Part shown: positions 1 through 18,210 of the stretch, one piece after another | How the letters are laid out: each line of letters begins with the position of its first letter | Position numbering within the stretch: the stretch's first letter is position 1 | Origin: Planctomycetota bacterium | GTDB lineage: Bacteria; Planctomycetota; UBA8108; UBA1146 | DNA length: 64,000 nucleotides | Direction of reading: 5' to 3' | Assembly: GCA_965661685.1 (NCBI GenBank) | Contig: CBFIET010000122.1 | Coordinates: forward strand, 27,270-91,269 | Program-made: the position numbers and the translations under genes | The notes under the pieces: model-generated | Database searches by the model: none | Seen by the model: the letters and a program-made list of their open reading frames with translations, nothing else | What the model was told of the DNA's origin: nothing

Positions 1-990
1 GGACAGCTTCTTCCGAGCCGCAAGGAGCAGGTGGTGATCGGTGACGATGGTGCCGTGCGGTTGGGATTCGAGTTGAAGGAAGAGTCGGAGAATGTCGTCC
101 TGCAGCAATTCGCCAGGGCCATCGGCTGGCGCGTCGCTGCAAGCTGGTTTCCGCAACGCCCCACTCCACTGTTGCTGATCGGAGACCTGCCGGAGAAAAG
201 TCTCGATTCTCCCGTACAGGTGTTTTCCGGAGATTCGACCACCAGTTCCAGCGATCGATTGCGTGATCTACAGCGATGCAGCGGAACCGAGATCACCATC
301 GGAAAGGGAAAGGAACAGTTGGTCCTCTCCTTCCGCAATCCCGTGCACTTCTCGGTGATCCCTGACGTCGACGGGCATGGAGCACAACTGTGTGCTGATG
401 CCGGCGTGGTGCTGGCAGGATCTGCACTCGATCTTTCCATCGCAGCAAGCAGTGAGCGAGAAGAGGGGCGGGTCCAGGCGATTGTTGAAAAGATCGATTC
501 GCTGCTGGCGAAACCCGATGAAGGTGCAGCCCAGAATCTGATCAACGACGCTCGGAATGCCTTTCCGTGGCGCGAAGACCTCGAGCGAAAGATGGTCGAG
601 AGAGAGAACCTGATCCAGATCGAAGTGGATGCTGCCTTCGCCCAGATCGAGGCGGTCGTCGCTGATGCCGACAATTACCCCGGCGCCCCGACCGGGCAGT
701 ACCTGAAACGGATCTGCGAGGCAGCGGCGGTTCGCTTCAGGGGTCTCAAGCCTGGAGCACTCTCCGGGGAGATCCTCTCCTCGATGGAGGAGCAGCAAGC
801 TGCGGCCAGGGGCGTCGAGGAGGAAGACGAGATCGGTCGCCTGCTCGCCAGGGGGCGCGCTGCACTGGGACGCAATCGTCACGAGGTGGCTAAATTGTAC
901 TTCCAGTGGGTGGTGGAGCACCACCCGTCAACCGCTGGATCCGAAACTGCGCAACAGGAACTGAAACTGATCGAAGCGAGGGGTAACTGA
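1..990 (+). CDS. Hypothetical protein with a coiled-coil/TPR-like C-terminus; 5'-partial at the window edge
   Basis: Open frame runs to position 1 with no upstream stop. Its TGA stop overlaps the ATG of the next gene (ATGA), indicating co-transcription with the pseudopilus operon. No recognisable family motif. Confidence 0.45.
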   Translation, partial: GQLLPSRKEQVVIGDDGAVRLGFELKEESENVVLQQFARAIGWRVAASWFPQRPTPLLLIGDLPEKSLDSPVQVFSGDSTTSSSDRLRDLQRCSGTEITIGKGKEQLVLSFRNPVHFSVIPDVDGHGAQLCADAGVVLAGSALDLSIAASSEREEGRVQAIVEKIDSLLAKPDEGAAQNLINDARNAFPWREDLERKMVERENLIQIEVDAAFAQIEAVVADADNYPGAPTGQYLKRICEAAAVRFRGLKPGALSGEILSSMEEQQAAARGVEEEDEIGRLLARGRAALGRNRHEVAKLYFQWVVEHHPSTAGSETAQQELKLIEARGN

Positions 991-2609
991 TGTCATATCG
1001 GGGACACGCCACAGTGGTTCAACTTACCGCCGATCGCTGGCGCGCGGTTCATGTTTCAGGGCATGGCCGAGGCGTCGAGGTCGTTGCCATCGATGAAATC
1101 GAGGCGACCGACCAGGATCAAATCACGCCCTGGATCAAGGATCTGGCCAGTCGAGGATTCCCGGTGAAGAACACCGGAATCCTGCTCGATTCTGAAAATT
1201 CCTCGCTGCGCTATCACGGGGTTCCGCCGGTTCCCTCGTGGCGTCTCGAATTGATTCTCAAGTACGAGGTGGAAGAGATCGCCGAGAAAACTGGCGACAC
1301 CCTTTCCGGGGGACACATGGAGCTGGTGGTTCCGGAGAGTTTCTCCGAGGACACCCTGCTGCTCCTGGGGGTCGGCAAGGATGCGTTGATCCAGCCTTCC
1401 ATCGATCGGATTCGTGCGGGTGGAGGGACCATCGCTCGCGCCTTGCCCGCTGCCATGGGGATCTATCATGCTCATCTTGCTGCAGGGAATATCGACGATG
1501 ACGAAACGGTGGTTCTGTGCGACGTGCACCACGCCGAGACGCAGATTCTCGTGGTTCGTGGTGATCGCCTGCTGTTCGCCAGGAGTGTTGGCTTCGGTAT
1601 CCAGGGCCTCGAAGAACTGGTCCAGGAGCGACTCTCCCTCGACGCACAGAAAGCGGTAGAACTGGTTGCGCACTTTGCTTCTGGAGATCTGGTCGGTCAG
1701 GAAGAAGCGGTCTCGATGTGCCATCGAGGTTGGTCGAGCCAGTTGATTCAGATGCTGAAGTCGTCTCTCTCCTTCTGCCAGGCTCAGTTAAAACTTGAAG
1801 AGGTTTCGGCAGATCGACTCCGTCTCTCCGGGTCAGGCGCCTCTCTTGTATCGAGCGGGGAGGATCTCGGCGCTGAACTGGGTTGCAACGTCGACACCCT
1901 TGCCTTCGAGGGGGCCGATGGAACTGACTGGACGGTTCTGGTCGGTACCGCAGCGGCGATGTGCGATGGCGAGGAACGTGTCGTCGATCTGCTACCCGAA
2001 TCGGAACGAAAAAGGCGAACCTTCCGTGACCACACTCGTTTCCTGTGGGCCGGAGTCGCAGCCCTGGTAATCGCACTCGGTCTGCAGTTCATCGATGTTT
2101 CCCTTGCCTCCTCACGGGCGGGAAACGCCTTCGATGCGATCAAGCACTGGCGAGGTCAGATCTCCAGCTGGACTGCTGCGGAAGCAAGTGCTCGAGCGGA
2201 AAACGATGTGTTTCGGAAGCGAGAAGCTCGCGTGCTTCAGGAGATCGACACGGGGCGTTTCTATGCACGGATACTCGACGGCCTGAGGGCGGAGTTACCG
2301 GTCGAGATCTCACTCGATCAGATTCGCCTCAACCGCGTTGCATCTGCGGAAGTGGTCGGAGTCGAGGTCACTCTCTCCGGCGTGGCGGATAACTCCAGAA
2401 GAAATGGACTGGAAGCGATCGAATCGCTGCAACGGAAGCTGGAGGCGGTGCCCGGTGTCGAACGAGTCCAGGTCATTCCTGGCGCGCCCAAATCAGGCAG
2501 TTACCCCTTCGTCATCACCGTGTCTCCGGTGGAGGAGATGCCGGACAACTCGGGCAGGCGAGGAGGTCCTGGCAGACGAACCAGGACACCATTCGGGGGG
2601 AGAGGATAA
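990..2609 (+). CDS. GspL-like assembly protein: cytoplasmic actin-like (PilM-type) domain, single TM helix, periplasmic PilN-like domain
   Basis: N-terminal ~340 aa is an actin/FtsA-like fold. A TM segment (FLWAGVAALVIALGLQFIDV) and a periplasmic domain follow. This PilM-PilN fusion architecture matches GspL. The gene lies in an operon with pseudopilins. Confidence 0.65.
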   Translation: MSYRGHATVVQLTADRWRAVHVSGHGRGVEVVAIDEIEATDQDQITPWIKDLASRGFPVKNTGILLDSENSSLRYHGVPPVPSWRLELILKYEVEEIAEKTGDTLSGGHMELVVPESFSEDTLLLLGVGKDALIQPSIDRIRAGGGTIARALPAAMGIYHAHLAAGNIDDDETVVLCDVHHAETQILVVRGDRLLFARSVGFGIQGLEELVQERLSLDAQKAVELVAHFASGDLVGQEEAVSMCHRGWSSQLIQMLKSSLSFCQAQLKLEEVSADRLRLSGSGASLVSSGEDLGAELGCNVDTLAFEGADGTDWTVLVGTAAAMCDGEERVVDLLPESERKRRTFRDHTRFLWAGVAALVIALGLQFIDVSLASSRAGNAFDAIKHWRGQISSWTAAEASARAENDVFRKREARVLQEIDTGRFYARILDGLRAELPVEISLDQIRLNRVASAEVVGVEVTLSGVADNSRRNGLEAIESLQRKLEAVPGVERVQVIPGAPKSGSYPFVITVSPVEEMPDNSGRRGGPGRRTRTPFGGRG

Positions 2610-3413
2610 ATGCAAGAAATCTGGCAAAAGAACAGACAGGTGCTGATCAAGGCGTTGTCCGCTCTGGCAATTTTCCTGGTCATCTCCAACATCGCGCGGG
2701 GTTATCGTTCCGATTACGAGAACAAGTTGGTTCGCAACGAAGAGGAAGCTCAGGTTCTTGCGCAGAAACTTGAAGAACTGGACGGTGTCGTCGACGTCGA
2801 ACGGAAGTCGCGAACTGCCCTCGAGGAGCGCAATCAGGACCTGCTCAAGAAGATGGGGATCTCCTATTCTGCAAGTCATCAGGCTCCTGGTGAGGGCGGA
2901 ACATTCAGCATCGATTTCAAGCGAGCGAAGGATTCGGTATGGGTCGATTTCCGGGAGCGAGCCAACAGGATCGGGCTGGTCACTCCCTCTGATATCCCCA
3001 ATTTCGATGAGAGGGGAGACCTGAGCGACGTCGAGTGGGTCGATCGATATCGACTACTCGAGGTGATGGATAGGTTTCTCAAGGCGTGCTTGCAATCCGA
3101 CATCGTGAGGATCGACAAGGTCGTTCCTGGTGATCGGATGCAGGAGGATCTGCAGGACCAGGAGAAGGTGCTGGTACGGTATCCCGTGGCCTTCGAACTG
3201 ATCTGCAAACCGGGTCAACTCAGTGAACTGATCGTTCGATTCCAGCGAGATCAATCGTTCCTTTCCATCGAACCGGGCTCGGTGATACGAGACAAGGATG
3301 ACGAGGAGCGTATCTCTGTAAACCTCACGGTGGTAGGGATCGACATGGAGGATCCTCGTGAAGCTGCTTCAGACAATCGAAGAAGTCCAAGACAGCCGAG
3401 GAGGGGGTTCTGA
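2610..3413 (+). CDS. GspM/PilO-like bitopic inner-membrane assembly protein
   Basis: N-terminal TM helix (ALSALAIFLVISNIA), then a coiled coil, then a periplasmic domain. Its ATG directly abuts the GspL-like stop. Confidence 0.5.
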   Translation: MQEIWQKNRQVLIKALSALAIFLVISNIARGYRSDYENKLVRNEEEAQVLAQKLEELDGVVDVERKSRTALEERNQDLLKKMGISYSASHQAPGEGGTFSIDFKRAKDSVWVDFRERANRIGLVTPSDIPNFDERGDLSDVEWVDRYRLLEVMDRFLKACLQSDIVRIDKVVPGDRMQEDLQDQEKVLVRYPVAFELICKPGQLSELIVRFQRDQSFLSIEPGSVIRDKDDEERISVNLTVVGIDMEDPREAASDNRRSPRQPRRGF

Positions 3414-3799
3414 TGCGCTGGAATATAGAAAAGACCTTCTGTGGAATCTGCCTCTGTTTCTTGCTGCTCAACGTGTTCGGGCTTGCGAAGACATTCATCC
3501 TCGGAGACCCGCTCACAGGAGTTGCTCTTCAGCAACCCAGTTCCAGCGACGGTGGAGCCGTCGGTGGCCTGGTCAGGCTTGACTGGTACGAACCTGTGCC
3601 AGTAGAGGTCGCCAGAAACCCCTTTCAGAGTGTCAGTGAGTGGAAGCCAGCACCTGTCGATGTGCTCGGTGCGCCTCCGGTAGCGCCGTTGCCCAGGAGG
3701 ATTCCACTACCCGCACTTCTGTCCGGTAACTCCGCCACCCGGCTACACGCCGAACTCGCGCCTCCGGTGCAAGTGGACGAAGATGAGGAGTCTCGGTGA
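3413..3799 (+). CDS. Small signal/TM protein with an RNPF motif and a Pro-rich tail (PilP/GspC-like N-terminal segment?)
   Basis: Hydrophobic N-terminus. An 'ARNPF' motif resembles the conserved RDPF/RNPF motif of PilP. ATGA overlap with the upstream gene. No beta domain is present. Confidence 0.35.
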   Translation: MRWNIEKTFCGICLCFLLLNVFGLAKTFILGDPLTGVALQQPSSSDGGAVGGLVRLDWYEPVPVEVARNPFQSVSEWKPAPVDVLGAPPVAPLPRRIPLPALLSGNSATRLHAELAPPVQVDEDEESR

Positions 3800-6114
3800 T
3801 GCAAAGAAACATGATCGTGCTACTGCTGCTGCTCTTTAGCCCTGTCCTGATGGGGCAAGACGGCATCGACATGGAAATTCGCGCCCAGGACATCATCGAG
3901 TTGAACAACGGAAATCGATTTGAAGGTCGAATCCTCTCGGAGTTGAATGACTTGATCCAGTTCGAAACCGCAGCTGGCAAGGTTTCGATCGCTCGAGGTG
4001 ATATCCGTCAGATCCTCTACAGGAATCCTCCAGAAAAGATCTACGAGGCGAAATTGCGGGGTGATTTCAACAGCCTGTCTCACGACAGTCACCTGCAGGT
4101 CGGTACGTGGTGTTTTCAGCCCGAGGTACGCCTGCTGGAGCAAGGAACGATGCACCTGGAGAAGGCTGTCTCCATCGATCCGGCCAGGATCGGACCCTAT
4201 CCGCAACTGATCGAGAGATATGCTGCTCGAGATCTCTCCGATGTCGAGGCGAGTGACCTCGAGCAGATGCAGATCATGGAGTGCCAGATACTTCTTGCGG
4301 GCATCAACGCGGGAGTCCCGATAGACAATCTCGATGAACTCGCAGTCGCTGCTCTCATCCGAACTGGTGATGTGGAAGCCGCCGTATTGCTACTTCAAAA
4401 GATGAGCAGTGGTTCCATCGAGGAGCCGTCTGTGGCGACCTCTTTACGGAAACTCGTGGTGTTGCTCGATTCTCTCGGAAGGTCGGAGGAGTCTCGTGAG
4501 GCTGCAACTCGTCTGCGAGAAGAGGGTGGAGGATCTGATGTCCAGGTACTTCGTCGAGAACTGCGCTGGTCAGTCCTGGATTACTCAGCGGGAGCGCTCG
4601 AAAAGCGTGGAGAAATCGACCGGATGGTCGAAGAGCTGATCGAACAGGGTGGCGACTCGGGAGAGGTATATCTCTATCGCGGTTCAGTGCGTCTCATCGA
4701 TGGAGATCTGACGGCTGCGGAGTCCGACTTCAAGAAGGCGTTTCGAGCAGGTAGTGTCGATTCGGTCGCCGCTACGACCTTCGCGCTATCTTTCGCGCGC
4801 CAGGGTTACTTCGAGAAAGCGCTCGACCTGCTAGGGTCTGCGGCATCCAGCGAACAGGTTGCGGTGGACTGGCGACTGGTAGAAGCCTACGTCCTCGAGT
4901 CGCAAGGAGACGTCGGGGCGGCGGTCGAGTTGTATGAGGAAGCAGCTGAGCACGAAGATTCGACATGGCAGGCACGCCTGCTGAGTATCGAGGCGAAGAG
5001 ACGCTTCCAGAACAACTGGGATCCTGTTCAGGATTTACAGAAGGTGATGCGGTCGGAGTTACTCTCTCCTGCTGCCTTCGCTGAATGCGCCATGGTTCTG
5101 GGGGATCATGCCCTCGAATCGGGTCGCCTACCAGAAGCGCGGCGTTGGCTCGAGTACGCCATCTCCAGCGGCTCCGACGGCCCTGATGTGATGTTGCGTC
5201 TGGCGCTTGCCCAGAGGGGGCCAGGCGGGGATCCGGCGCGGGCTCGTGAAGCACTCGATGTGGTGACGGAGCAACTTCCAAGGGACGCAGATGGTTGGAA
5301 TGCTCTCGCTGAACTGCTCCATACCCAGGGAGATCTCGAAGGAGCCAGGAGCGCACTGGAAAAGACGATTTCCCTCTATCCCGAGAAGATCGCAGAATCG
5401 TGGTCTCCTGAAACACCCGTTCCCCTCAGGTGGGCGCTTCGTTCCCAGCGCAGGATCTCCAGAGCCATCGAGCAGGAGTACTGGTTCGATGACTTTGAAC
5501 GAGATGATGACGATACTCTCCAAAATAATTGGCTCGAAGAGGAAGCGTACGGTGTATCGGTATCGATCAAGGATGGAACGGCCTTCTTGCAGGGCGTCCA
5601 GAAGCACCAACCCGATCGCCTGACCACCATGAAGAGGGAGATCCTGACTCCACGATTGACCGGCATTCGTACCGCCATCCGACTTCTCGCTGCGGGCCCA
5701 GGTACTCGGATTGCATTCCGCATCGAGGATCAATCTGGAGGCGGCATCGTCTTTTTCCGTGATCCGGATGGTGTCCTTGGATTTGCAGTTCTGGGCGGCA
5801 AAAAGGTCGACATGATTCGCACCGACGATGAGGAGGCCCAGGAAGACTACGGCCTCATCTCCACCTCCTGGAGCAAGGATTCTGGATCTCACCAGCTGGA
5901 GATCGCCTTCTCTTCCGACGGCAAGAATGACGCAGAACTTTGGTTTGACGGGATCCGCATCGCCAAGGGAATCTCCTACCGGCCATCACGCAAATCTGGG
6001 CTCACGGGAGGCTTCTCGGGCCAGGCGCCCCTCGACGAATTGTACGGATTCTCCATCGATGAGTTCGAGGTGTTCCGGCGCAAGGCGTTGGTCGTCCGAG
6101 AAAGGGAGTACTAG
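3796..6114 (+). CDS. Secreted TPR-repeat protein with a C-terminal concanavalin/LamG-like beta-sandwich domain
   Basis: Signal peptide MIVLLLLLFSPVLMGQ. Multiple TPR-like helical repeats. The C-terminal ~200 aa is beta-rich and LamG-like. The gene is embedded between assembly and pseudopilin genes. Confidence 0.55.
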   Translation: MMQRNMIVLLLLLFSPVLMGQDGIDMEIRAQDIIELNNGNRFEGRILSELNDLIQFETAAGKVSIARGDIRQILYRNPPEKIYEAKLRGDFNSLSHDSHLQVGTWCFQPEVRLLEQGTMHLEKAVSIDPARIGPYPQLIERYAARDLSDVEASDLEQMQIMECQILLAGINAGVPIDNLDELAVAALIRTGDVEAAVLLLQKMSSGSIEEPSVATSLRKLVVLLDSLGRSEESREAATRLREEGGGSDVQVLRRELRWSVLDYSAGALEKRGEIDRMVEELIEQGGDSGEVYLYRGSVRLIDGDLTAAESDFKKAFRAGSVDSVAATTFALSFARQGYFEKALDLLGSAASSEQVAVDWRLVEAYVLESQGDVGAAVELYEEAAEHEDSTWQARLLSIEAKRRFQNNWDPVQDLQKVMRSELLSPAAFAECAMVLGDHALESGRLPEARRWLEYAISSGSDGPDVMLRLALAQRGPGGDPARAREALDVVTEQLPRDADGWNALAELLHTQGDLEGARSALEKTISLYPEKIAESWSPETPVPLRWALRSQRRISRAIEQEYWFDDFERDDDDTLQNNWLEEEAYGVSVSIKDGTAFLQGVQKHQPDRLTTMKREILTPRLTGIRTAIRLLAAGPGTRIAFRIEDQSGGGIVFFRDPDGVLGFAVLGGKKVDMIRTDDEEAQEDYGLISTSWSKDSGSHQLEIAFSSDGKNDAELWFDGIRIAKGISYRPSRKSGLTGGFSGQAPLDELYGFSIDEFEVFRRKALVVREREY

Positions 6115-6741
6115 ATGAAAGCTTCTTCCCAATCGGGTTTCACCCTGGTCGAGTTACTCGTGGTGATCGCCATCATCGGAGTGCTGGCCGGTCTGGGAAC
6201 CCGGATGCTCGGCTACGCGACCAAGAGTAGTGCCATCGGCCTCGCAGAACAGGAGATGCAGCGACTGGTCCTGGGTGTCGAGACTTACACCCTCGACTTC
6301 GGTGATTTTCCTCCGTCGTCGATGGAGCGAGATTACGAGATCTCCGGAAACGGGCTCGATGAGGGGATCGAGAGCCTGGTTGCGCACCTCGCCAGCCGCT
6401 CGCGAGGTCGTTCCTATTTCGAGTTCAAGGAAGAGCACATCGAGAATCTCGACGAGGATCGGATGACCAATAGCGATCTCAAGGAAAAGATGAACTGGGT
6501 CTTCGGAGACGACCAGTTGCGAGAGTATGTCGATCCCTGGGGGGTTCCCTACGTCTACATCCACAACAGGGATTACAACAGCGAATTCTCGGTCACACAG
6601 GAGTCTGGGCCGGTGATGGTGACCGCTGGGATGTCGGAGAAAACGGCGACCCATCACGAGCCTCTTCGTTTTCAGATATGGTCCGCCGGTCCCGATGGAA
6701 TCCATCAAAACGGTGGCGGGGATGATGTTTCAGCATGGTGA
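6115..6741 (+). CDS. gspG: Major pseudopilin GspG (type II secretion)
   Basis: Class III signal with G-FTLVELLVVIAIIGVLAGL and Glu at +5. C-terminal GspG signatures DPWGVPYVY and IWSAGPDG...GGGDDVSAW are present. Confidence 0.85.
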   Translation: MKASSQSGFTLVELLVVIAIIGVLAGLGTRMLGYATKSSAIGLAEQEMQRLVLGVETYTLDFGDFPPSSMERDYEISGNGLDEGIESLVAHLASRSRGRSYFEFKEEHIENLDEDRMTNSDLKEKMNWVFGDDQLREYVDPWGVPYVYIHNRDYNSEFSVTQESGPVMVTAGMSEKTATHHEPLRFQIWSAGPDGIHQNGGGDDVSAW

Positions 6742-8126
6742 AGAGCGATACACGATCTAACCATGGAATCACGCTGATCGAGCTGCTCGTGGTGCTCTCG
6801 ATCCTGTCCGTGATTCTGGGTATGTCGGTATCGGTCTTTCGTTCCTTCGGCGACGCTCAAACGCTTGAGGTCGCTTCCAGTAGCGTTTCATCTACCGTCA
6901 GGGCAGCCAGGAACTGGTCGATCTCTTCCGGAATGCCCAGCAGAATTCTGGTCGATCCCGACCTTCGCAAGGTGACCGCCTTCGGCTTTCAACTGGTCGG
7001 ATCGTGGGACTTCGAGGACCTGGCAGGGGAGTCGCAGGGCAATGCCCTCGAGAGAGGCACCACCACATCCGGCGCGTACCGGCTTGAAGCGGAAGTTGTC
7101 GGGCGAGTGGAGCCGTGTCGTGGCTCCATCGGGGTCGGGGCGCACTTCGTCGATGAAGGTGCCTCCTTTCGAGCTCGAAATCTCCCCAGTTTTCATGGAC
7201 GCAACGGTGTCTCCATCGAAGCGTGGGTGAATTTCTGGAAGCCTCCCTGGCAAGTAGAAGATGGAATCGAACCGACTGGCGGTTTCTCCGATCCCAGGCG
7301 TGAGATGCGTCTCGCAGTACTCGGGATCCCACGTTCCTTCGAGATGGGATTGCTCGGTGATGGGGCGGTTTATTTCGAGGTAGGGGATCCGGAACGGGCC
7401 ATCGAAGGGGAATTCATCCGTGCTCAGACTGAGGGTGCTGTGGTGATTCCTGACCGCTGGGTACACCTCAGGGCCACCTTTGACGGAGTTGCACTGGTCA
7501 TCGAGGTGGACGGTGTCGAATTCGACTGGGTTCCTCAAGGATTCGAACTCGCCGAGCAGTGGCCACCGTTGCCGAGCGAGGTTCCTGTCAGTGATGCGGA
7601 TCTGTGGATCAGCCATCCCGATCGTTTCTTTCTCGGTGCACTGGACCAACTGGTGTTGCGTGTTGCCACCGAGCCGAACGTGACCGAATTGCCGCTGGAT
7701 ATCGAGCTGCTGGGAGCCACTTCACTGATTCATCTCGATAGCCGCGGAGCACTCGATCCTCTGCGTCACAATGAACCGGTGGTGATTCACATCGCAGAGG
7801 TCGGCGACCTCGTCCAGCTAGAAGCTGCCGATGGTACAGCCGTGGCGAAGGAGAGCTTCAGGGATCGGATGCGGAGAGAGCGGCAGGAACGCCAGGATCG
7901 TGACGACAAGATCGAAAAAGCTTTTGGAGATCCCATCGCAGATCTGATGCATCATCTTGAAAACTGGGAAACGGATCCGCAGACGCTGCTAGGCGATGAT
8001 TCGGAACCAGATGTCTTCGTTCCACTTGCACCTGGGATTCACTTCGGTGTCGGCGAAATCGATGGAGTATCGGTGTTGAGACTTCACAACGTGGTCATCG
8101 ACCTGACGGGAGCGATCCGTGGTTGA
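6735..8126 (+). CDS. Large minor pseudopilin (GspH-like prepilin N-terminus) carrying a LamG/concanavalin-like domain
   Basis: Prepilin-type N-terminal methylation motif G-ITLIELLVVLSIL. 463 aa, against ~180 aa for a typical GspH. The central region is LamG-like (WVHLRATFDGVALVIEVDG). Overlaps both neighbouring genes. Confidence 0.7.
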   Translation: MVKSDTRSNHGITLIELLVVLSILSVILGMSVSVFRSFGDAQTLEVASSSVSSTVRAARNWSISSGMPSRILVDPDLRKVTAFGFQLVGSWDFEDLAGESQGNALERGTTTSGAYRLEAEVVGRVEPCRGSIGVGAHFVDEGASFRARNLPSFHGRNGVSIEAWVNFWKPPWQVEDGIEPTGGFSDPRREMRLAVLGIPRSFEMGLLGDGAVYFEVGDPERAIEGEFIRAQTEGAVVIPDRWVHLRATFDGVALVIEVDGVEFDWVPQGFELAEQWPPLPSEVPVSDADLWISHPDRFFLGALDQLVLRVATEPNVTELPLDIELLGATSLIHLDSRGALDPLRHNEPVVIHIAEVGDLVQLEAADGTAVAKESFRDRMRRERQERQDRDDKIEKAFGDPIADLMHHLENWETDPQTLLGDDSEPDVFVPLAPGIHFGVGEIDGVSVLRLHNVVIDLTGAIRG

Positions 8127-11100
8127 ACGTCGTCCCCAATCAGAAGTTGGTATGGCACTATTGATGGTGATTCTGGTGCTGGCTGCCCTCGCCGCCATCG
8201 GAACGCCCTTCGTCATCTCGATGAAGTTGCAGGAGAATGGAGCGGCTCGGTCGGTGGCGCAACAGCGTGCCCATCTCGGTGCACGCAGCGCCAGAAGTCA
8301 TGCCATCAGTCATCTGTTCGATACGCACCACAGTCGTGAGCGAGACCTCTGGGTACCCGGAATGGAGGCTCCCGATCTGGTCGATTCTGCCGACGAACTC
8401 GAGATCGAATTTCCCCCCGGGTTTGTCGCATCGGCTGTCGTGGGAGATGGTCCTCTCCCGATGCAAGCCCGTGGTGTCTCCGATCTGATCCTCGATTCCC
8501 ATGTCACCGATGAACAGGGCAAGGTCAATCTCAACAGCGCCATGCCCAATCTGATCGGCAATCTTCTGGCGGGAAGTCACCTCTCTGTCGATATCAAGTA
8601 CGAGGATGTACTCACCGAACTGCCTCTGGATGACACATCGAGTTTCCCTGTCGACGATGATCCCGATACTGTCGACGGAGTGGTGGTGATCCTCAATCCG
8701 ATTTTCTTCACCGTCGAGGCGGTGTCTTACACGGGAAAGACCGAAACCGCACTCACCGGCATTTTTCGCGGCCAGTACCTATCCGGTACCTGGGAGCATC
8801 AGAAGGGGTGGCCCGTCTTCGATCTTCGTGGCCTGAAGGTCTTCCTGCATCGGTTGGCCAATCTTTCCGATGGTGAGATTGCCACATTCCGAACACCGAT
8901 CGGGTTGCGCCAGATCGCCGACTGGTCGGTGATTCCGTACTTCCTGCAAACCCTCGCGGTACTCGGGCTCAATCTGGAAAACATGGCGGAGTGGGGGCTT
9001 TCGCCGGAGATGCTGGTGCGTGCCGGTATCGATCCGAAGATGATGCAGAGGGAACCTGAAGAGGTTGACGAAGCGGAGTACCGTCGGTCACGCAAGTTGC
9101 TTCTCGACAACAACATTCCCAAGGAAGTGGTCGAGCTGGTCGAATCGATTCGAGGCAAGAACGCCATCATCGAGGCAGCCAAGTTCGCGGAGGATCTAGG
9201 CCTCGATAAGGCTCGTGGAAATGCCTTCAAGGGCTTCTACATCACCTTCGTGGCTCCCGAGTTGAAGAAGTTGAAGGCGCACTCGAAGGGATACACTCCG
9301 AAGGCGATCATGGCTTACGAGCAGATCAACAACATCCCGGGGATGGAGACCTTCTCTGCAGCAGATTTTGAACAGATCAGGGATCTCGTCACCACAACCT
9401 CGACCCAGCCACGGGAGTGGTCTCAGGAGCAGATGGTCGAGGGGGAGATCACCAACAGCGCGCTGCTCGGTGTACCTCAGATGCGATTGCCCAGATACGA
9501 CTTCTTCAATCCCGGTACCGTGGTACGGATCCGTAGCATCGAGGATCCGTCAAAGGTGGAGTACGGTCTCGCCGCCGGGGCATTCCCAACACCTCGCGGT
9601 GGATTTCGAGGGATGGGTCAGGGGAGCATCTTCCAGGGAGGGGTCATCCTCAAGGAGCCTCTCAAGCTGAAATGGCGCGAGAGAGAGGCGATGGTCAGTG
9701 CCGCTCTTCGGCATCCCATCAACATCAACACCGCCCCACGTCGGGTCATCCAGGCGGTTCTCACCGGTCTCTCGGTAGACCGTTTCTCGAGGGAGTTCAA
9801 CGGTGTCACCGTCAAGGAGGCTCGGGATCTCACCGATCGCCTGATGGAAGCGATGCCGATCTCCGGTTTCGCTGCATTCCGCAGCATCGTCGAAAGTGCT
9901 CAACTCGCTGGAGATCTTGACGGAAGAGATTCGGAGGCGATCCTGATCAATGCCTTGAATCCGAATCAGCCTCGCCTGTCGATCTCGACCACCAGTTTCT
10001 GCTACTCGACATCCGATGTGTACACCGTGGAGTCCACGGGTGTGTCGAGGAGTCCGGTAGGAAGTCCCGTGGCTACCGTTCGCCTCCGCGAGGTGATCGA
10101 GGTCGCTCCTCCTGATTCCCTTTCACTGCGTCTTCAAACCCAGGAAGACTGGGCGAGCATCTTTGCCACTCGCGATCCTGGTCAGGGTAGATTCACCCGC
10201 TTCAACAGTACCTTCGTTCCGGGTAGGGCATCCAACCTGATGGTGTGCGGACCGATTCCATTGCAGAGAACCAAGTTCACCGGGCCCTCGCTCGATCAGG
10301 GGTCACTGAGAGGCGAGGCACTTTCCAGCGAGAACAGTTCGGCTCGATATCGTCATGGCTCCGTCGCCTTGCTCGAGGTGGAGCATTTTTACGACACGCT
10401 GGAAGGTTACGAACTGGAGGACGGTCCCTGGTCACGCTCGGTGGTGATCGAGAACCAGCAGGAATCAGGTGGAAGGCGTGGAAGGCGATCGGTTCCACAA
10501 CCGCAAGTATCCGCTGTTGAAGAAGTCCCGGAAGTGGTCACTACGATTCCGGCGATGGTCGATTTCTGGTACCGACCACGGTGGGGTTCCCGTAGTGGCA
10601 ACAAGATGATCTTCGATTCCTGTGGTCCTACCCTCGAGCGACACCGCAATCGAGTTCGACTCTTCTTCGCCGGGGACAGGCAAGAACTGGTGCTTCAGGT
10701 CTTCGACGAGACGGGGGCTGCCATCGCCTGGAAGTCGGACGTATTGCCCGCTGCGGAGGTTCGATACCCGGTGACCAACGTCACCTTTGCCGATGACACC
10801 TGGTATCACATCTCTGCCGGCTGGAAGTCCACCAGGCCTGGAGATCTGACCTTGATGATCGATCGCAGACCGGTCGGCAAGCAGTCCTGGCTTTCGCGAC
10901 TCGGTGGTGGTCTTTCCTTTGGCGGAACCCGTGTGTCGATCGAGGACATCGAGATTGCCAATCGATTCCCGCCCAGCGGCACCCTGCTGGTGGGAAGCGA
11001 GGCGATCGATTACTCCGGTAAGGAGGGCTCCTCCTTCATCGTGCGGGCTCCAGGCCCCAATGGTGAGCCTCCGCTGGGGCGTGGTGTTCGAGGCACGGTG

Positions 11101-13851
11101 CGTTCCGCTCATCCTGCCGGCACCGCAGTTCGCTTGCTCGGTTATTCGCTGCAACTGGCCAGCTCCGATCCCAATATCGGTGTTGCTGACTCGACCAATC
11201 GCCTGATCATCGGCCCGGCAGGTGCGACACTGGGTATCGATCAGGCCGCAACGATGAGGGTTCAGAGTTTCAACTCTTCCAATGGTGCCGTGGAACTGGC
11301 TCCCAGCAGTTTTGCCTATGCCAGTACGCAGATCCTCTCAGGGGTTGTCGGGCAGGCGGTCAGCACCCTGGAACTGGAGCCTTTCAGTGCCGCTTCCACC
11401 TCACTGCTCGTGCAGACAGAGGGAACTCACCCCCTTGAACTGGGCTTCCCTCCCAGGGGATACATTCACATCGAACAGTGGACGCAACAGGGAACCGAGC
11501 CGAGTCGCAGGGTTGCCGTTGAGTTCGCGAAGTACTCGACCATCACACCGGGACCAATTCCGGGCTTGTACCGTTTTACCGGCATGGGCCGGGCGATGCT
11601 CGGTTCGGTGGCAACACAGGGCATCAACAACGCCGAATCGAACACAAGACTCTTCGTCCGGGGAGTTTCCCTCGAGTCGGACGCAAGCAATCTGGATAAT
11701 GCCTATGCGCCATCGGGAGTGATCCAGATCGCTCGGCCTCCCGGCCTTCTCGCCGGAGGTGTACTGAACGATTGCGAATGGATTCGCTACACTTCCATCG
11801 CCGAGGGCAAGTTTTTCATCTGCGATCCGGATGCGTCGTCCGTCTTCAGGGGCTTTACCGGTGACCGCTACACCGCATCTTCCGATCCGTTCCGGCAAAA
11901 TAGGCCGATCTGGGACCGAGCAGGCATCGTCAATCATGTTGCGGGGCAGGAAATCATCCAGGTGGTCCGGACCGTGGGATCGAAAGCTGGTTTTGGCGAC
12001 CAGGTGATCCTCGGGGATGGATATGGAGATCCCACCCAGCGGATGGTCGAGGCCGCTCCGCTGCGGGTCTGGAAGGTTCGGGAGACGACTACCGGAGTCT
12101 ACGCGAGTTTTTACTGGTCTCCCGAGGGGCTCTATACCACTGCACAGGATCCACGGATCCGGCGCTTTCCAAGTGGCGGATTGCCGTCCACCTCGGAGGG
12201 GCGCATCGTCTTCGGCGGCTCGATGATCTCCGGAGATGGCGTTGCCGCTCCGGGAACACTCGATGAGGTCCGCTTCAGCCGTCTCGACACCAGCGATGTC
12301 GACATGTACGCCTTTCCCGTAGCGACCGGGGGACGCTTCATCACCGACACCATCTCCGATTCCTCTGGAGCCAGCAGTGGAGTGCAGCGGCGAGTGATCC
12401 GTAGCCACTTCACCAGGAATGATTCGGAACAAGGTGGTGGGGGCATCGACAGGATCGCCTTGCTTGCCCGTTCCCGATTGATCTCTTCCGCCACTCAGCC
12501 AACCGGGGAGGGGGCTGCTCCGGGCGGAGTCACCCGCAGTTTTTCAGTGGGGGATCCGAGCAAGTTCGGCATGGGAAGCACGGAAGGCCTGCTCCAGGTC
12601 GATTCGGAAATCTTCCATTACTCCCACGAATCCAATCAACAGCAGCAAGACGCCGTGATCGTTCAACTGGTGCAGGATTTACCGCGAGATCCGTTCATCG
12701 ATGAGAGTGAGTTGGGTGACGGAGATACGGTTCCGTACAACCCTGATCGAGATCTCCGGGTCGAGATGGTTTCCGATGTGAAGGTCGACAACACCGGCAA
12801 CCTGCCTCCCGGCGGAGGTTTCCTCGAGTTCATCACAGGCTCTACCAGTGAAGTGATCTTCTACCAGCAAGCGACCAACGGATACCTGAGGAATGTACTG
12901 CGTGGACAGCTGGGATCACCGGTGGGTGGCTATGTATACCAGTACAACTACCTCGATGCAGAAGGTGTGACGCAGACGATCACCAACACTCATCGTTTGC
13001 GACTACTGCCCAGTCGAGAGATCGATGTTCTGACCCGGGGAATGCTCTCTTCTGCCCGGGAGGATGGTCAACTGGGACATGAGTCGTTGATGCCGCTTCC
13101 CTCGATCCCGGTGGCCAGGTTGGCGGGGCAATTGCGTGAAGGTGGATTGACCCTCGACATCCTGGGTGGTGACGACGATCAACCTTCCAGTAGCCTCCGT
13201 GCTTTCGGTAACAATGAAGGATACCTGGTCGTCGATGACGGCATCGCCACCACTCCTGACGAAATCATCGCCCATACTGGAGTTTCCGGGAACGGTTTCG
13301 GATTGTTCCGGGACGATCGAAGCGGAAAGCCGATCTTCCGTGGACGATTCGGGACCGGCGAGATGGTGAGTTCAACCAGCGCTCCTCCACGAGGCACGCC
13401 AGTCATCGAGTTGATGGCTCGCAATCACGACCGCTTCCAGTACATGGTCGATTCGAAGGATCTTCAGTACTTCGAGCGTGCCTGGACGATGCCGGGAACG
13501 ATGTGGGATCGCATCGGCTGGGAGGTGGAGCAAACCACCCGCGGAGCCACTCCGGCATTCGTGCAGATTTATGCCCGGTTCGACGGCAAACCCTCCTGGG
13601 ATTCCGAACCTACAAATTCACCTGGAGGACTGTACCGGTTCGATCAGCCAGACCAGGAGAACCTGTTGGGGCAGTACGGAGATTCACTGGAAGTCAGGGT
13701 TTATTACTACCATCAGCGGGGTGCCTACGGGCGAAACTCCAGTTCCGGTCAGTGGAGCGATGAGTGGAAACACCTACCGGTCCTCAAGAACCTGAAGATT
13801 GAACACCGCAAGGAGTGGCGAGTGCTCCATCACGAGGAGTTCCCCTACTGA
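8119..13851 (+). CDS. Giant (1910 aa) GspK/PilX-like minor pseudopilin fused to a very large beta-rich extracellular region
   Basis: GspK-type N-terminus (basic residues, then G-MALLMVILVLAALAAI with no Glu at +5). ComEA/GspK-like helix-hairpin-helix region (HPININTAPRRVIQAVLTGL). An internal LamG-like segment (WYHISAGW...LMIDRRPVG). GTG start overlaps the upstream stop, and the stop overlaps the downstream ATG. Confidence 0.7.
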   Translation: MVERRPQSEVGMALLMVILVLAALAAIGTPFVISMKLQENGAARSVAQQRAHLGARSARSHAISHLFDTHHSRERDLWVPGMEAPDLVDSADELEIEFPPGFVASAVVGDGPLPMQARGVSDLILDSHVTDEQGKVNLNSAMPNLIGNLLAGSHLSVDIKYEDVLTELPLDDTSSFPVDDDPDTVDGVVVILNPIFFTVEAVSYTGKTETALTGIFRGQYLSGTWEHQKGWPVFDLRGLKVFLHRLANLSDGEIATFRTPIGLRQIADWSVIPYFLQTLAVLGLNLENMAEWGLSPEMLVRAGIDPKMMQREPEEVDEAEYRRSRKLLLDNNIPKEVVELVESIRGKNAIIEAAKFAEDLGLDKARGNAFKGFYITFVAPELKKLKAHSKGYTPKAIMAYEQINNIPGMETFSAADFEQIRDLVTTTSTQPREWSQEQMVEGEITNSALLGVPQMRLPRYDFFNPGTVVRIRSIEDPSKVEYGLAAGAFPTPRGGFRGMGQGSIFQGGVILKEPLKLKWREREAMVSAALRHPININTAPRRVIQAVLTGLSVDRFSREFNGVTVKEARDLTDRLMEAMPISGFAAFRSIVESAQLAGDLDGRDSEAILINALNPNQPRLSISTTSFCYSTSDVYTVESTGVSRSPVGSPVATVRLREVIEVAPPDSLSLRLQTQEDWASIFATRDPGQGRFTRFNSTFVPGRASNLMVCGPIPLQRTKFTGPSLDQGSLRGEALSSENSSARYRHGSVALLEVEHFYDTLEGYELEDGPWSRSVVIENQQESGGRRGRRSVPQPQVSAVEEVPEVVTTIPAMVDFWYRPRWGSRSGNKMIFDSCGPTLERHRNRVRLFFAGDRQELVLQVFDETGAAIAWKSDVLPAAEVRYPVTNVTFADDTWYHISAGWKSTRPGDLTLMIDRRPVGKQSWLSRLGGGLSFGGTRVSIEDIEIANRFPPSGTLLVGSEAIDYSGKEGSSFIVRAPGPNGEPPLGRGVRGTVRSAHPAGTAVRLLGYSLQLASSDPNIGVADSTNRLIIGPAGATLGIDQAATMRVQSFNSSNGAVELAPSSFAYASTQILSGVVGQAVSTLELEPFSAASTSLLVQTEGTHPLELGFPPRGYIHIEQWTQQGTEPSRRVAVEFAKYSTITPGPIPGLYRFTGMGRAMLGSVATQGINNAESNTRLFVRGVSLESDASNLDNAYAPSGVIQIARPPGLLAGGVLNDCEWIRYTSIAEGKFFICDPDASSVFRGFTGDRYTASSDPFRQNRPIWDRAGIVNHVAGQEIIQVVRTVGSKAGFGDQVILGDGYGDPTQRMVEAAPLRVWKVRETTTGVYASFYWSPEGLYTTAQDPRIRRFPSGGLPSTSEGRIVFGGSMISGDGVAAPGTLDEVRFSRLDTSDVDMYAFPVATGGRFITDTISDSSGASSGVQRRVIRSHFTRNDSEQGGGGIDRIALLARSRLISSATQPTGEGAAPGGVTRSFSVGDPSKFGMGSTEGLLQVDSEIFHYSHESNQQQQDAVIVQLVQDLPRDPFIDESELGDGDTVPYNPDRDLRVEMVSDVKVDNTGNLPPGGGFLEFITGSTSEVIFYQQATNGYLRNVLRGQLGSPVGGYVYQYNYLDAEGVTQTITNTHRLRLLPSREIDVLTRGMLSSAREDGQLGHESLMPLPSIPVARLAGQLREGGLTLDILGGDDDQPSSSLRAFGNNEGYLVVDDGIATTPDEIIAHTGVSGNGFGLFRDDRSGKPIFRGRFGTGEMVSSTSAPPRGTPVIELMARNHDRFQYMVDSKDLQYFERAWTMPGTMWDRIGWEVEQTTRGATPAFVQIYARFDGKPSWDSEPTNSPGGLYRFDQPDQENLLGQYGDSLEVRVYYYHQRGAYGRNSSSGQWSDEWKHLPVLKNLKIEHRKEWRVLHHEEFPY

Positions 13852-14933
13852 TGCAGCGCCAGGACGGAATGACACTGATCGAGATCCTCGTTGCTCTCGG
13901 CATCTTCGTGATGCTGGGGAGTGGGCTCGTGATGTTTCTTCGCGACGGCATCGCTACCTGGCAGGTGGGCGAGTCTCGACGAGAGGCAGTCGAACGAGCC
14001 GAGGCGATCCTCGAACCGCTCGCGGCCGACCTGCGTTCTCTCTTCACTCAGCCAGATCCCGGTCCTGGTGGTGGTTTCGTCGATGTCTTGCTTCTCTGTG
14101 ATCGAGACCAGCATCGGCGTCCTCGCCTCCGTATGGTCAGCGCTCTTGATGAGGAGACGAGAAATCCCATCAGCCGCATTGCAGGATCACTCACCGGGGG
14201 GGTCGCCGAGATCGATTACATCAACGATTCGATGGAAGCGAAACTCGGAATCTTACGGGCTCCCGGAGGGCTCTGTGAGGTCTCCTATTCGATGGGTCCT
14301 GAAGCGGATTCGGAGCTGCTGTGGCGGGGATTCAAGAGCCCGATCGGCGGCCCCGGCAGTGTATTCATCGATTCAAACCTCGCTCCCGATGAGGATGGTA
14401 CTCCCAGGAGAAGCCGTCCCATCGCAGATGGTGTTCTCTACATGGAGTGGTCCTTCTGGGGGGGAGATCGACGGCACTGGGTCGGGGGGAAGGCGCAAGC
14501 TCCCATCAAGGTCTGGGATTCGACACGGGGAATCATCAAGATGCCGAAGGAGAGTGGAGTCTCGTGGGATCCATCGAGTCGTGACGACCCATTCGACGAT
14601 GTGTTTCCCGACACGGTGGAGATCTTGCTGGTATTGAGGCCCAATCGATCGAAGGCGTTGGCGCGCCTCTCCGCCGATCTCGATGATTCTGCACGAACCA
14701 TCCGGGTCGACAATACCGCACAGTATCCAGTGACCCCCGATTCCTACATTCGCATCGATGCGGAATGGATTCGCGTCGGTGAGATCGGTCCTCGTTCCTT
14801 CAACGACTGCCAGAGAGGGGCTCGAGGAACGACTGCTGTCGATCATCGAAGAGGAACTTCCGTCGTGCACGGATCCAACTTTCACAAGACGGTCAGAATC
14901 CCCACCTCACGCGATCCAGGAGGTGTTCGTTGA
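13851..14933 (+). CDS. Minor pseudopilin (GspJ-like)
   Basis: Prepilin motif G-MTLIEILVALGIFVMLGSGL with Glu at +5. The internal ATG at 13851 is preferred over the track start 13815 because it overlaps the upstream stop as TGATG. Confidence 0.65.
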   Translation: MQRQDGMTLIEILVALGIFVMLGSGLVMFLRDGIATWQVGESRREAVERAEAILEPLAADLRSLFTQPDPGPGGGFVDVLLLCDRDQHRRPRLRMVSALDEETRNPISRIAGSLTGGVAEIDYINDSMEAKLGILRAPGGLCEVSYSMGPEADSELLWRGFKSPIGGPGSVFIDSNLAPDEDGTPRRSRPIADGVLYMEWSFWGGDRRHWVGGKAQAPIKVWDSTRGIIKMPKESGVSWDPSSRDDPFDDVFPDTVEILLVLRPNRSKALARLSADLDDSARTIRVDNTAQYPVTPDSYIRIDAEWIRVGEIGPRSFNDCQRGARGTTAVDHRRGTSVVHGSNFHKTVRIPTSRDPGGVR

Positions 14934-15355
14934 AGTCCAATCCTGGTCAGCACGGTTTCAGTTTACTCGAGGTGGTGGTTGCGCTGGGAATCCTCATCGT
15001 CGGGGTCAGTTCGGCGATCTCGCTCTTTGCTGCAGGCACTGCAGCGCATAGTCGTGCGGTTGACCGAGTGCGATCGATCGAGGTCTGCGAGGTGGTGCTC
15101 GCGTCGCTGGAGGGCGCGTTACGAGACGGGGCCACCCTCACCCAGATCATCAACGATCCACCGTGGCAACCTTTGCTGGTACGCTGGCCCGGAATCGAGG
15201 TCGATCTGGAGTACGGGACCATCGACAAGGATGAGTATACCGACCTGTTGCTGGTGGAGATTCACGTGCGCTGGATCTCTCGGGGGCAGGAATCGCAAGA
15301 GATCTTCCACCAACTGGTGCCCAGGATGAGAAGTGTCCGACTGGATCGTCCCTGA
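14930..15355 (+). CDS. Minor pseudopilin (GspI-like)
   Basis: Prepilin motif G-FSLLEVVVALGILIVGVS. 141 aa, a typical GspI size. Four-nucleotide overlap with the upstream gene. Confidence 0.65.
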   Translation: MKSNPGQHGFSLLEVVVALGILIVGVSSAISLFAAGTAAHSRAVDRVRSIEVCEVVLASLEGALRDGATLTQIINDPPWQPLLVRWPGIEVDLEYGTIDKDEYTDLLLVEIHVRWISRGQESQEIFHQLVPRMRSVRLDRP

Positions 15356-16479: not shown

Positions 16480-16778
16480 AACGTAGTGTCGTTGCAAGAT
16501 GGCGAGAATTCAACCGACGGTTATTGAACAGGAGGTGTCGATGATGTAAGGATGTTGCTCGGGAAAGATCCGTACGGTTCGGATCGGAAGTGTGGTGAAA
16601 ATCCACCGCGGTGCCGCCGCTGTAACTGGGGACGAAACCTGCACCTCTCGTGCCTTGAATGGCCCGGGAGAGCCACTACCGAAACGTGGGAAGGCGCAGG
16701 CGGAGAATGATCCAGAAGCCAGAAGACCTCCCGTGAATCAGGTCCCCGAAAGGGGTTTCTCCGAGCAGGGATGACTGG

Positions 16779-18173: not shown

Positions 18174-18210
18174 TGGGGTAATAATCCACTCCCAGGCAGA
18201 TTGGATCAAA

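Follow-up and report, generated by a model that had tools for sequence, protein, structure and literature searches.

The system for type II secretion (T2SS) and the type IVa pilus (T4aP) are the described machines closest to the locus reported here. The first has a pseudopilus made of GspG, H, I, J and K (XcpT-X in Pseudomonas, Eps in Vibrio) and the second has an assembly set of the form PilM-PilN-PilO-PilP(-PilQ); in T4aP the genes are normally spread over more than one locus, and this is also seen in some T2SSs. Our subject is a cassette lying in the first 15,355 bases of a 64,000-nucleotide (64-kb) stretch of DNA, hereafter the window, from a Planctomycetota bacterium (assembly GCA_965661685.1, contig CBFIET010000122.1, positions 27,270 to 91,269 of the forward strand). 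In our judgement it probably, though far from certainly, encodes two subassemblies of a type IV filament machine, a T4aP-type scaffold and a T2SS-type pseudopilus in hybrid form, with the motor, platform, peptidase and any pore encoded elsewhere and with a giant K protein as a probable ligand-binding tip. What is new in the cassette is this mixture of scaffold and pseudopilus, the inverted H-K-J-I order, a greatly enlarged K, control genes of the FHA and σ54 type, and the lack of a motor or pore in cis.

Several other systems bear on the comparison. PilK-family proteins without a glutamate at position +5 form the apical subunit of a filament, and CpaL is a large K-like protein with an adhesin domain in its middle; these tip subunits need a final β-strand, for which GspK itself provides in cis, CpaL with its far C-terminus and PilY1 in trans (PMC13533445, 2026). 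In S. sanguinis, lectin-bearing modular minor pilins are found at the tip and act as adhesins (PMC9934059). The MUL2 locus of Akkermansia (Amuc_1098-1102, of which Amuc_1101 is PilM-like) has been implicated in the acquisition of mucin and fucoidan (PMC13174399), and in planctomycetes dextran-binding fibres emerge from crateriform structures (PMC5394234). No description of the present cassette was found in the searchable literature.

Results

Gene content of the cassette

The window contains ten ORFs (open reading frames) of the cassette, all on the forward strand within bases 1-15355. In the list below a slash marks the cleavage site of each prepilin leader.

ORF1, 1..990 (+): C-terminal 329 residues, the periplasmic part, of a protein of ~834 residues with the layout FHA-FHA-membrane span-periplasmic domain
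ORF2, 990..2609 (+): PilM-like actin-fold domain (residues 1-350), membrane span (354-372) and periplasmic domain (373-539)
ORF3, 2610..3413 (+): bitopic protein; N-terminal membrane span (11-29) followed by a charged helical stretch and a periplasmic domain of ~180 residues
ORF4, 3413..3799 (+): 128-residue protein, membrane-anchored by a predicted span, with a proline-rich periplasmic part and an R-N-P-F motif
ORF5, 3796..6114 (+): secreted or periplasmic protein with a signal peptide, a TPR region (~90-540) and a conserved C-terminal domain of ~225 residues
ORF6, 6115..6741 (+): GspG-type major pseudopilin of 208 residues with two insertions; leader MKASSQSG/FTLVE
ORF7, 6735..8126 (+): minor pseudopilin of 463 residues, GspH-like N-terminus and an inserted LamG/concanavalin-A-like domain; leader ...SNHG/ITLIE
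ORF8, 8119..13851 (+): giant GspK-like pseudopilin of 1,910 residues; leader ...SEVG/MALLM, with no Glu at +5
ORF9, 13851..14933 (+): GspJ-fold minor pseudopilin of 360 residues with an extra C-terminal β domain; leader MQRQDG/MTLIE
ORF10, 14930..15355 (+): small GspI/PilV-like minor pseudopilin of 141 residues, the last gene; leader ...GQHG/FSLLE

These coordinates are those of an earlier reading made from the letters of the DNA (the sequence-only reading), except that the start it gave for ORF1, at base 31, is spurious: this frame is already open at base 1, and the gene runs out of the window at that end. A GTG start at 13815 was considered for ORF9 and rejected, since ATG 13851 fits a 360-residue database protein of 100% identity and gives a proper prepilin leader. 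The full unit is of 12 genes, 10 of them visible in the window; this count, and the content of the upstream part, are taken from the relatives L001 and L008 (92-93% identity) and from loci of lower identity.

The pseudopilus proteins

ORF6 to ORF10 encode five proteins with class-3 signal peptides, the same number of prepilin-type proteins as in the T2SS pseudopilus; four have a glutamate at +5 and the K protein, ORF8, does not. An I-J-K(-H) tip priming a GspG polymer would be expected to show this arrangement (PMC13533445).

The leader of ORF6 has G at -1, F at +1 and E at +5. The protein matches N_methyl (1.7e-8) and T2SSG (8.5e-5, a score of 23.0 against a cut-off of 21) in Pfam and gspG in NCBIfam (1.7e-11, with 44 bits against a cut-off of 89). 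It is clear from the end-to-end alignment of ORF6 with E. coli GspG, which includes the DPWG..Y and SAGPDG..DD..W motifs, that the major subunit is GspG-like, as had been proposed from sequence alone. Furthermore, ORF6 has no cysteine and so cannot form the disulphide loop of T4a pilins; the fibre subunit of the cassette is GspG-like where that of T4aP is a T4a pilin.

The assignments of the minor subunits made in the sequence-only reading were also upheld, on evidence of different kinds. The prepilin ORF7 has an N-terminus like that of GspH and, in addition, a LamG domain, with matches to N_methyl (8.3e-7) and Laminin_G_3 (3.1e-5, residues 149-306) in Pfam and, over its N-terminal part only, to gspH (6.9e-6) and XpsH (1e-5) in NCBIfam. 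For ORF9 no sequence model reaches its cut-off; N_methyl scores 1.9e-5 in Pfam, the PDB profile match covers at most the N-terminal pilin helix, and a Pfam scan of the C-terminus returned no domains. Its GspJ identity comes from the fold: the top Foldseek matches in the PDB for its AlphaFold model (confidence score pLDDT 80) are all T2SS minor-pseudopilin entries, several with a probability of 1.00, including the XcpGHIJK filament chain 9a1f_S (5.4e-6), XcpVWX 6utu_E (2.9e-4) and EpsI:EpsJ 3cfi_B (3.5e-4). The matches to XcpW/EpsJ chains, which were read as J-type from chain lengths of 153-198 residues, span E-values of 5.4e-6 to 5e-4 and template-modelling scores on the target of 0.47-0.60. 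ORF10 appears to be a small GspI/PilV-like prepilin; it matches N_methyl in Pfam (5e-5) and, both below cut-off, PilV (3.1e-4) and gspI (1.3e-3) in NCBIfam, while its PDB profile match is limited to the N-terminal helix. Its place is kept in L029-L031, L034 and L035. The matches that would identify ORF7 as GspH and ORF10 as GspI are at the level of the N-terminal helix and all below cut-off, and size and position fit.

Compared with the T2SS pseudopilus, the cassette shares the GspG-like major subunit with both motifs, a J of XcpW/EpsJ fold, a K-like subunit without Glu+5 that has a predicted helical insertion and a helix-hairpin-helix (HhH) motif, and a small I-like subunit. It differs in that K has 1,910 residues against ~330 (about six times) and J 360 against ~200, and in that H and K carry LamG domains. 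The order is also different, G-H-K-J-I as against G-H-I-J-K. The sequence-only reading had called its gene order non-canonical, counting in an unknown upstream gene and a TPR/LamG protein; the order itself was confirmed, but the upstream gene can now be recognised and the LamG part of ORF5 found no support (see below).

Comparison was also made with the Verru_Chthon cassette families of Verrucomicrobium and Chthoniobacter (TIGR02596, TIGR02599 and related models), as the sequence-only reading had proposed. The likeness is one of concept, a small prepilin-type cassette in bacteria of the Planctomycetes-Verrucomicrobia-Chlamydiae (PVC) superphylum, and the Verru_Chthon cassette likewise includes one very large protein. 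The score cut-offs were failed by a wide margin (TIGR02596, 25 bits against 70; TIGR02599, 13 against 256). ORF6 and ORF7 match the Verru_Chthon D and C models in the N-terminal helix only, far below cut-off, and neither ORF8 nor seven distant members of its family gave any match to the models of this cassette.

The giant K-like protein

ORF8 begins with a GspK-like module (residues ~1-665), followed by a disordered linker, a LamG-like sandwich (~810-1000), ~900 residues without a known domain and a conserved C-terminal tail. Four observations agree with its earlier description as a giant GspK: the NCBIfam T2SS_GspK match at residues 11-141 (4.7e-7, falling to 5.2e-11 in distant family members), the lack of Glu+5, the Pfam T2SSK HhH motif at 534-555, and the topology of the AlphaFold model. 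That model (residues 1-1000, pLDDT 75) has a long N-terminal helix, strands and a helical insertion of ~190 residues, after which come an extra β region, further helices and two closing strands by residue 661. Its best Foldseek match is the neurexin LNS/LamG domain (probability 0.92), which most likely covers the predicted sandwich at 810-1000, and the same search returned no GspK. In the PDB profile search the match was at most to the N-terminal pilin helix, and a Pfam scan of segments of residues 660-1910 found no domains.

An exhaustive HMMER search with residues 1-1200 as the query, counted as clusters at 50% identity, gave a family of 502 clusters at E<=1e-3, 353 at E<=1e-10 and 136 at E<=1e-30. 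The members are mostly of 1,300-2,200 residues and the family carries no annotation; those distant members that were tested match the GspK model only. Even the most distant full-length homologues (25-30% identity) retain the sequence of the extreme C-terminus, WK..PVL..L.IEYRK.WRVLH.EE.PF, and the last ~30 residues (window 13750-13848) are better conserved than the ~900 residues before them. By analogy with CpaL and PilY1, whose extreme C-termini are conserved and donate the final β-strand, the tail is a candidate for the self-complementing β-strand of a tip subunit.

ORF8 resembles the large tip pilins more generally (the ConA-like lectin PilC and the vWA protein PilB of S. sanguinis, Caulobacter CpaL, Thermus ComZ and the PilY1/PilC adhesins), in which ligand-binding domains are grafted onto a pilin module (PMC9934059, PMC13533445, PMC6561018). 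Common to both are a ConA/LamG lectin module on a minor pilin and a K-family protein as the apical subunit, a place that ORF8 would probably take. In contrast, ORF8 is three to four times larger than CpaL or S. sanguinis PilC, most of its extension has no match to a known domain, and it occurs in a T2SS-like pseudopilin set.

A motif of ~35-45 residues is common to ORF8 (residues 961-1004, window 10999-11130) and ORF9 (residues 305-339, window 14763-14867). It reads E-[WA]-I-x-[VY]...R-G-x-R-G-T-x4-H-x2-G-T-x-V, does not vary at its key residues in either family and matches nothing in Pfam; degenerate copies are seen in ORF8 near residues 1219, 1577 and 1714.

The scaffold proteins

The front part of the cassette runs parallel to PilM-PilN-PilO-PilP(-PilQ) in gene order and topology, with a PilM-like actin fold, bitopic coiled-coil proteins and a small R-(D/N)-P-F protein like E. 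coli HofP. The similarity to PilM is significant at the sequence level: the ORF2 family profile matches M. xanthus PilM 3jc8 (5.6e-11) and Thermus PilM 2ych (8.5e-11) over ~260-300 residues. In NCBIfam ORF2 matches pilM (2.7e-9) and Amuc_1101_fam (1.8e-6), both below cut-off, and Pfam PilM_2 is recorded for its homologues, with ORF2 of the window itself below cut-off (17 against 27 bits). The sequence-only reading had named ORF2 GspL; this was not borne out, as it has a full-size PilM-like domain instead and its profile has no match to E. coli GspL. Judged by its sequence, ORF2 may be described as a PilM-PilN-type fusion with the architecture of GspL that would in effect be its functional equivalent.

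ORF3 is conserved in all relatives, including the 25%-identity locus L007. It fits the PilO/GspM role by position and topology alone: the GspM assignment stands to that extent, and in sequence there is no match in Pfam, NCBIfam, the PDB profile search or to E. coli GspM. A test of paralogy between ORF3 and the C-terminus of ORF2 gave nothing.

ORF4 has no family match in Pfam or NCBIfam. Its one strongly conserved feature is the R-N-P-F motif: among 12 homologues R68, P70 and F71 do not vary and N69 hardly does. HofP, which is the PilP homologue of E. coli, has RDPF right after its signal sequence. ORF4 is thus a candidate PilP-like linker, one that would be without the β-sandwich domain, for which it has no room. 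An ORF4-like gene is absent from the most distant locus, L031.

ORF5 sits at the place of the secretin in the pilMNOPQ order. It has an N-terminal hydrophobic segment with no lipobox cysteine, matches TPR_16 (3.9e-20) and other TPR families in Pfam, and has a C-terminal domain that is conserved among homologues but matches nothing in Pfam or the PDB. The claim of an embedded secreted TPR/LamG protein holds for the secreted TPR part. The LamG domain was rejected after negative results from hhalign against the ORF7 family, the PDB profile search and a Pfam scan of 13 homologues.

The front part therefore departs from T4aP in having the PilM and PilN-like parts fused, PilO and PilP equivalents that family models do not detect, no β-sandwich in ORF4 and a secreted TPR protein in the place of PilQ. 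The Akkermansia MUL2 locus is alike in being a PVC-superphylum locus around a PilM-like protein with a span and a periplasmic region, and in the proposed link to glycan binding. The Amuc_1101 model (NF045709) gives ORF2 only 27 bits against an equivalog cut-off of 650 bits, over residues 313-436, the region of the span. Furthermore, MUL2 has an adjoining secretin and an archaeal-type pilin-like subunit, and lacks the G-H-K-J-I set, the giant K and the FHA genes.

Motor, platform, peptidase and secretin genes

The window and 31 related loci (640 kb) were searched by tblastn with E. coli GspC/D/E/F/L/M/O and HofM-Q. No GspC/D/E/F/O or HofQ was found; the only matches were to full-length GspG, in the window and in all relatives, and, with the GspH-K queries, to short pseudopilin N-terminal helices. 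Considering tblastn, Pfam and gene tables together, no secretin, ATPase, platform or peptidase gene is present in the 64-kb window or in the 31 loci with their 10-kb flanks, confirming that gspD/E/F are not nearby. The suggestion that these genes and pilD might lie directly upstream fails, since the 10 kb upstream in relatives hold two FHA genes and then housekeeping genes (in every relative an S13 peptidase, an opposite-strand hypothetical gene, an M19 peptidase and an amidohydrolase). Since T4aP genes are normally, and those of some T2SSs likewise, divided among loci, the lack of D/E/F genes here is by itself no surprise.

Conservation of the cassette

Nearly all homologues of ORF2, ORF8 and ORF9 are from uncultured and largely marine Planctomycetota. 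When species-representative genomes were scanned, 21 loci with ORF2 at 50-93% identity were found, and in all of them the cassette orthologues are in the same order. Identity to the window proteins is 67-82% for the major pseudopilin, 60-78% for the giant protein and 35-66% for the scaffold proteins, and is lowest, at 35-54%, for the FHA membrane protein; that of the activator, measured against the 92%-identity relative L001, is 72-88%.

The far relatives L029, L030 and L031, in which identity of the giant protein falls to 42%, 31% and 25% respectively, keep the order: FHA protein (L029, L030), PilM-like protein, proteins of ~270 and ~125 residues, TPR protein of ~800 residues, G, H, giant K, J and I. 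Their junctions are short gaps, not overlaps. The front end of L031 differs, its first gene encoding a 554-residue protein with no family match and its small ORF4-like gene being missing. L034 has TPR-G-H-K-J-I, and L035 (8754-17103) has a bare H-K-J-I (410, 1,786, 379 and 173 residues) with no scaffold, TPR or G genes adjoining, which shows that the giant-K tip set can exist as a stand-alone minor-pilin operon.

That 21 species-level genomes, and far relatives as well, carry these genes in this order means that the arrangement is not due to chance, and the conservation of both genes and order indicates real genes under selection in a stable chromosomal context. The cassette is a vertically inherited, chromosomal cassette of marine Planctomycetota. 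It is highly improbable, in view of this, that the cassette is what is left of a secretion or pilus system in decay, no longer functional after the loss of its motor and pore genes; the absence of ATPase, platform, peptidase and secretin in cis from more than 30 loci would be expected of a remnant, but all genes are intact with conserved prepilin signals, gene order persists across loci whose identity ranges from 93% to 25%, the longest gene is one of the best conserved and has hundreds of invariant columns, and the K family has more than 350 clusters of full-length proteins.

Upstream genes, gene coupling and transcription

ORF1, which the sequence-only reading had left as an unknown coupled first gene, proved to be the tail of a two-FHA membrane protein, as it aligns to residues ~506-834 of the corresponding protein of L001. 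The L001 protein has two FHA domains (Pfam 8.7e-34; PDB profile 3.6e-14) and one membrane span at 256-274; the periplasmic part of the family has no match in Pfam or the PDB. Two coupled genes lie ahead of ORF2 in L001, in L008 and in every other close locus. The one next to ORF2 encodes a protein of 720-890 residues in which one or two FHA domains occur together with a single membrane span and ~560 residues of periplasmic domain, and the farther encodes an enhancer-binding protein of the layout FHA-GAF-Sigma54_activat-HTH_8 (Sigma54_activat 1.9e-71). The activator gene is outside the window, so that its Sigma54_activat domain and its GAFTGA loop, visible in the L001 translation, are seen in relatives only. 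The phospho-threonine-binding residues of the FHA domains are kept (GR...S..H...NG). In the sub-clade L005, L020 and L026 the first FHA domain of the membrane protein has been lost.

Activator and two-FHA membrane protein genes, translationally coupled to the cassette: L001 1189-5771; L002 5338-10001

FHA proteins are also encoded in the loci of other filament and secretion machines, namely the Tad-like Kil system of Myxococcus (PMC8460266) and the H1-T6SS (type VI secretion system) of Pseudomonas with its Fha1 threonine-phosphorylation pathway. In Kil, a Tad-type system, the FHA domain is fused to the ATPase itself, whereas in the cassette the FHA domains are on a σ54 activator and on a bitopic protein with a 560-residue periplasmic domain, and no kinase was identified. 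By analogy with such FHA-rich machines (PMC8460266), their presence on both proteins suggests that expression and assembly may be gated by a kinase through phospho-threonine.

All nine junctions within the window, read from the sequence, are overlaps or abutments:

990: TGATG, 1-nt (nucleotide) overlap
2610: TAA then directly ATG, abutting
3413: TGATG, 1-nt overlap
3796: GTGA, 4-nt overlap; alternative ATG at 3799, 1-nt overlap
6115: TAG then directly ATG, abutting
6735: ATGGTGA, 7-nt overlap
8119: 8-nt overlap
13851: TGATG, 1-nt overlap
14930: TTGA, 4-nt overlap

The description of the ten ORFs as one co-directional, tightly coupled cluster was thus correct; that of its junctions as ATGA/GTGA overlaps or abutments needs amendment, since three are TGATG and not ATGA. 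A purine-rich Shine-Dalgarno-like run lies 6-14 nt 5' of each ORF start. Consensus scans inside the cluster showed no excess of promoter-like (1 against 4.4 expected) or terminator-like sites (13 against 11.4 expected), and an Rfam scan found no RNA family within it. At its end, 8 nt separate ORF10 from the stop of the convergent holA (15364-16497, minus strand).

The cluster may nevertheless not be a single transcript. On the alternative account, a σ54 promoter in ORF5, driven by the upstream activator, transcribes the pseudopilin genes separately, much as PilR and σ54 drive pilA in Pseudomonas, and the coupling reflects genome compaction. The site in question is the following:

σ54-like -24/-12 motif AGGTAC-N5-TTGCA, 5700..5715 (+): inside ORF5, 415 nt upstream of ORF6; candidate internal promoter

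This motif is the most recurrent at any one aligned position, being found in 11 of 17 loci and perfect to the consensus in L028, and in 9 of 15 loci the -12 T, and with it the TTGC, is kept by rare isoleucine and valine codons, ATT or GTT; such codons hint at a constraint beyond that on the protein. Further, the activator must have a target and the region upstream of its own gene yielded none, and short overlaps are common elsewhere in the window too. On the other hand, the motif overlaps the conserved codons G-T-R-I/V-A and is gone in the clade in which this peptide is changed (L020-L026), so protein constraint can explain it; the -24 element in the window is GGTAC, not GGCAC; and an internal promoter would add to read-through from upstream rather than exclude it. 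An internal promoter for the pseudopilin genes inside ORF5 is therefore possible as judged from these bases, but that the cluster is divided into separate transcripts seems to us doubtful, albeit worth serious consideration. A second recurrent σ54-like motif lies ~284 nt upstream of the ORF8 start in relatives, and it too is on conserved codons.

Surrounding genes

The rest of the 64-kb window is of a housekeeping character, with holA, trkAH, lpxD, glmU, prs, dnaB, lpxC-fabZ, rpsB, prkA, moxR, argS and proS. Directly upstream of two coupled ORFs is a cobalamin riboswitch (Rfam RF00174, 64.5 bits). The ORFs have β-propeller-type matches (a weak one to DUF5074; Vgb_lyase/NHL/SGL) and could, from sequence and position, be binding or uptake proteins regulated by B12. 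A gene for a GH113 glycoside hydrolase adjoins one for a HEAT-VWA protein, and a MoxR AAA+ ATPase and another VWA protein are encoded further on. L029, the 42%-identity relative, shares with the window the genes that lie downstream of the cassette, holA / NYN / GH113 / HEAT-VWA.

16544-16748 (+): cobalamin riboswitch
16779-18173 and 18145-19464: coupled ORFs behind the riboswitch
24891-25937 (-): GH113 glycoside hydrolase
26070-27764 (+): HEAT-VWA protein
55257-56342 (-): MoxR AAA+ ATPase
61709-63055 (+): VWA protein

Discussion

The interpretation that we consider probable is a hybrid filament machine encoded by two subassemblies. The first would be an inner-membrane alignment scaffold of the two-FHA bitopic protein, the PilM-PilN-like fusion, the protein in the PilO/GspM position, the RNPF protein and the secreted TPR protein. 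The second would be a pseudopilus with a GspG-like major subunit and an H-K-J-I minor set in which K is modular and H bears a LamG domain.

Its working may be pictured as follows. The FHA-GAF-σ54 activator at the head of the unit would switch the unit on, the FHA domains placing it under phospho-threonine control, and a prepilin peptidase encoded elsewhere would cut the five prepilins after Gly-1. I, J and K, with H, would then make up the tip complex and so start the GspG-like subunit polymerising on the scaffold, a process driven by an ATPase of GspE/PilB type and a platform protein of GspF/PilC type, both encoded elsewhere. At the fibre tip the giant K, with its lectin-like domain or domains, would bind a macromolecular ligand, probably a glycan, and the fibre would not be a bare piston. 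That ORF8 is so large, and that both it and ORF7 carry LamG domains, points to ligand capture rather than to such a piston, and by analogy with modular tip pilins the cassette probably displays a lectin-bearing tip.

Some findings weigh against this interpretation. No ATPase, platform protein, peptidase or secretin is tied to the cassette, so that assembly is unproven; ~900 residues of ORF8 have no recognisable domain, and "lectin tip" thus covers part of the protein only; the assignments of ORF3, ORF4 and ORF10 come from topology, one motif or sub-threshold scores; and the region upstream of the activator gene has no convincing or conserved σ54 promoter site.

Alternatively, the cassette could encode the pseudopilus and platform of an ordinary T2SS whose gspD/E/F/O genes are scattered elsewhere, as in the T2SSs of Legionella and Acinetobacter. 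The fibre would then be a short periplasmic piston pushing folded exoproteins through a secretin, and ORF5 would be a substrate, chaperone or pilotin. The cysteine-free GspG-type major subunit with its C-terminal SAGPDG..DD..W, the GspJ fold with best matches to T2SS XcpW/EpsJ, the GspK-type N-terminus and the presence of a secreted TPR protein in the operon are all as this would require. However, a piston needs neither a LamG-bearing H nor a K of this size with a LamG domain and ~900 unassigned residues, features that are instead like those of the adhesive modular tip pilins (PMC9934059, PMC13533445). Furthermore, the scaffold is PilM-like and not GspL-like, no GspC was found in the window or the 31 loci, the locus is also without D, E, F and O, and the H-K-J-I order, the FHA proteins and the σ54 activator in the unit are not T2SS features. 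We therefore regard an ordinary T2SS as unlikely.

The hybrid filament could be given a more definite function, though one that we put forward as speculation and think quite improbable in its entirety. The fibre would be dynamic and gated by phospho-threonine; its 210-kDa lectin-bearing ORF8 tip, helped by the LamG-bearing ORF7, would capture polysaccharides or other macromolecules and draw them to or through the outer membrane into the enlarged periplasm, and it would be the basis of the dextran-binding fibres of planctomycetes (PMC5394234). If this were so, the secreted TPR protein, and not a classical secretin, might form part of the envelope conduit, and what the cassette does would correspond, in planctomycetes, to the pilus-dependent acquisition of glycans that has been proposed for Akkermansiaceae (PMC13174399).

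A PilM-PilN-type fusion coupled to GspG-H-K-J-I is the kind of intermediate that would be expected between the T4aP and T2SS machines, and ORF2 offers a concrete case of the way in which GspL might have come about. The giant K-like proteins make up a large unannotated family that is probably the working end of a fibre, with two thirds of each protein still without an assigned structure or function. The FHA domains on the activator and on a membrane component would bring a type IV filament under the control of Ser/Thr kinases, a poorly explored field. Lastly, planctomycetes bind and internalise polysaccharides by means of fibres of unknown composition, and the cassette provides candidate genes for them.

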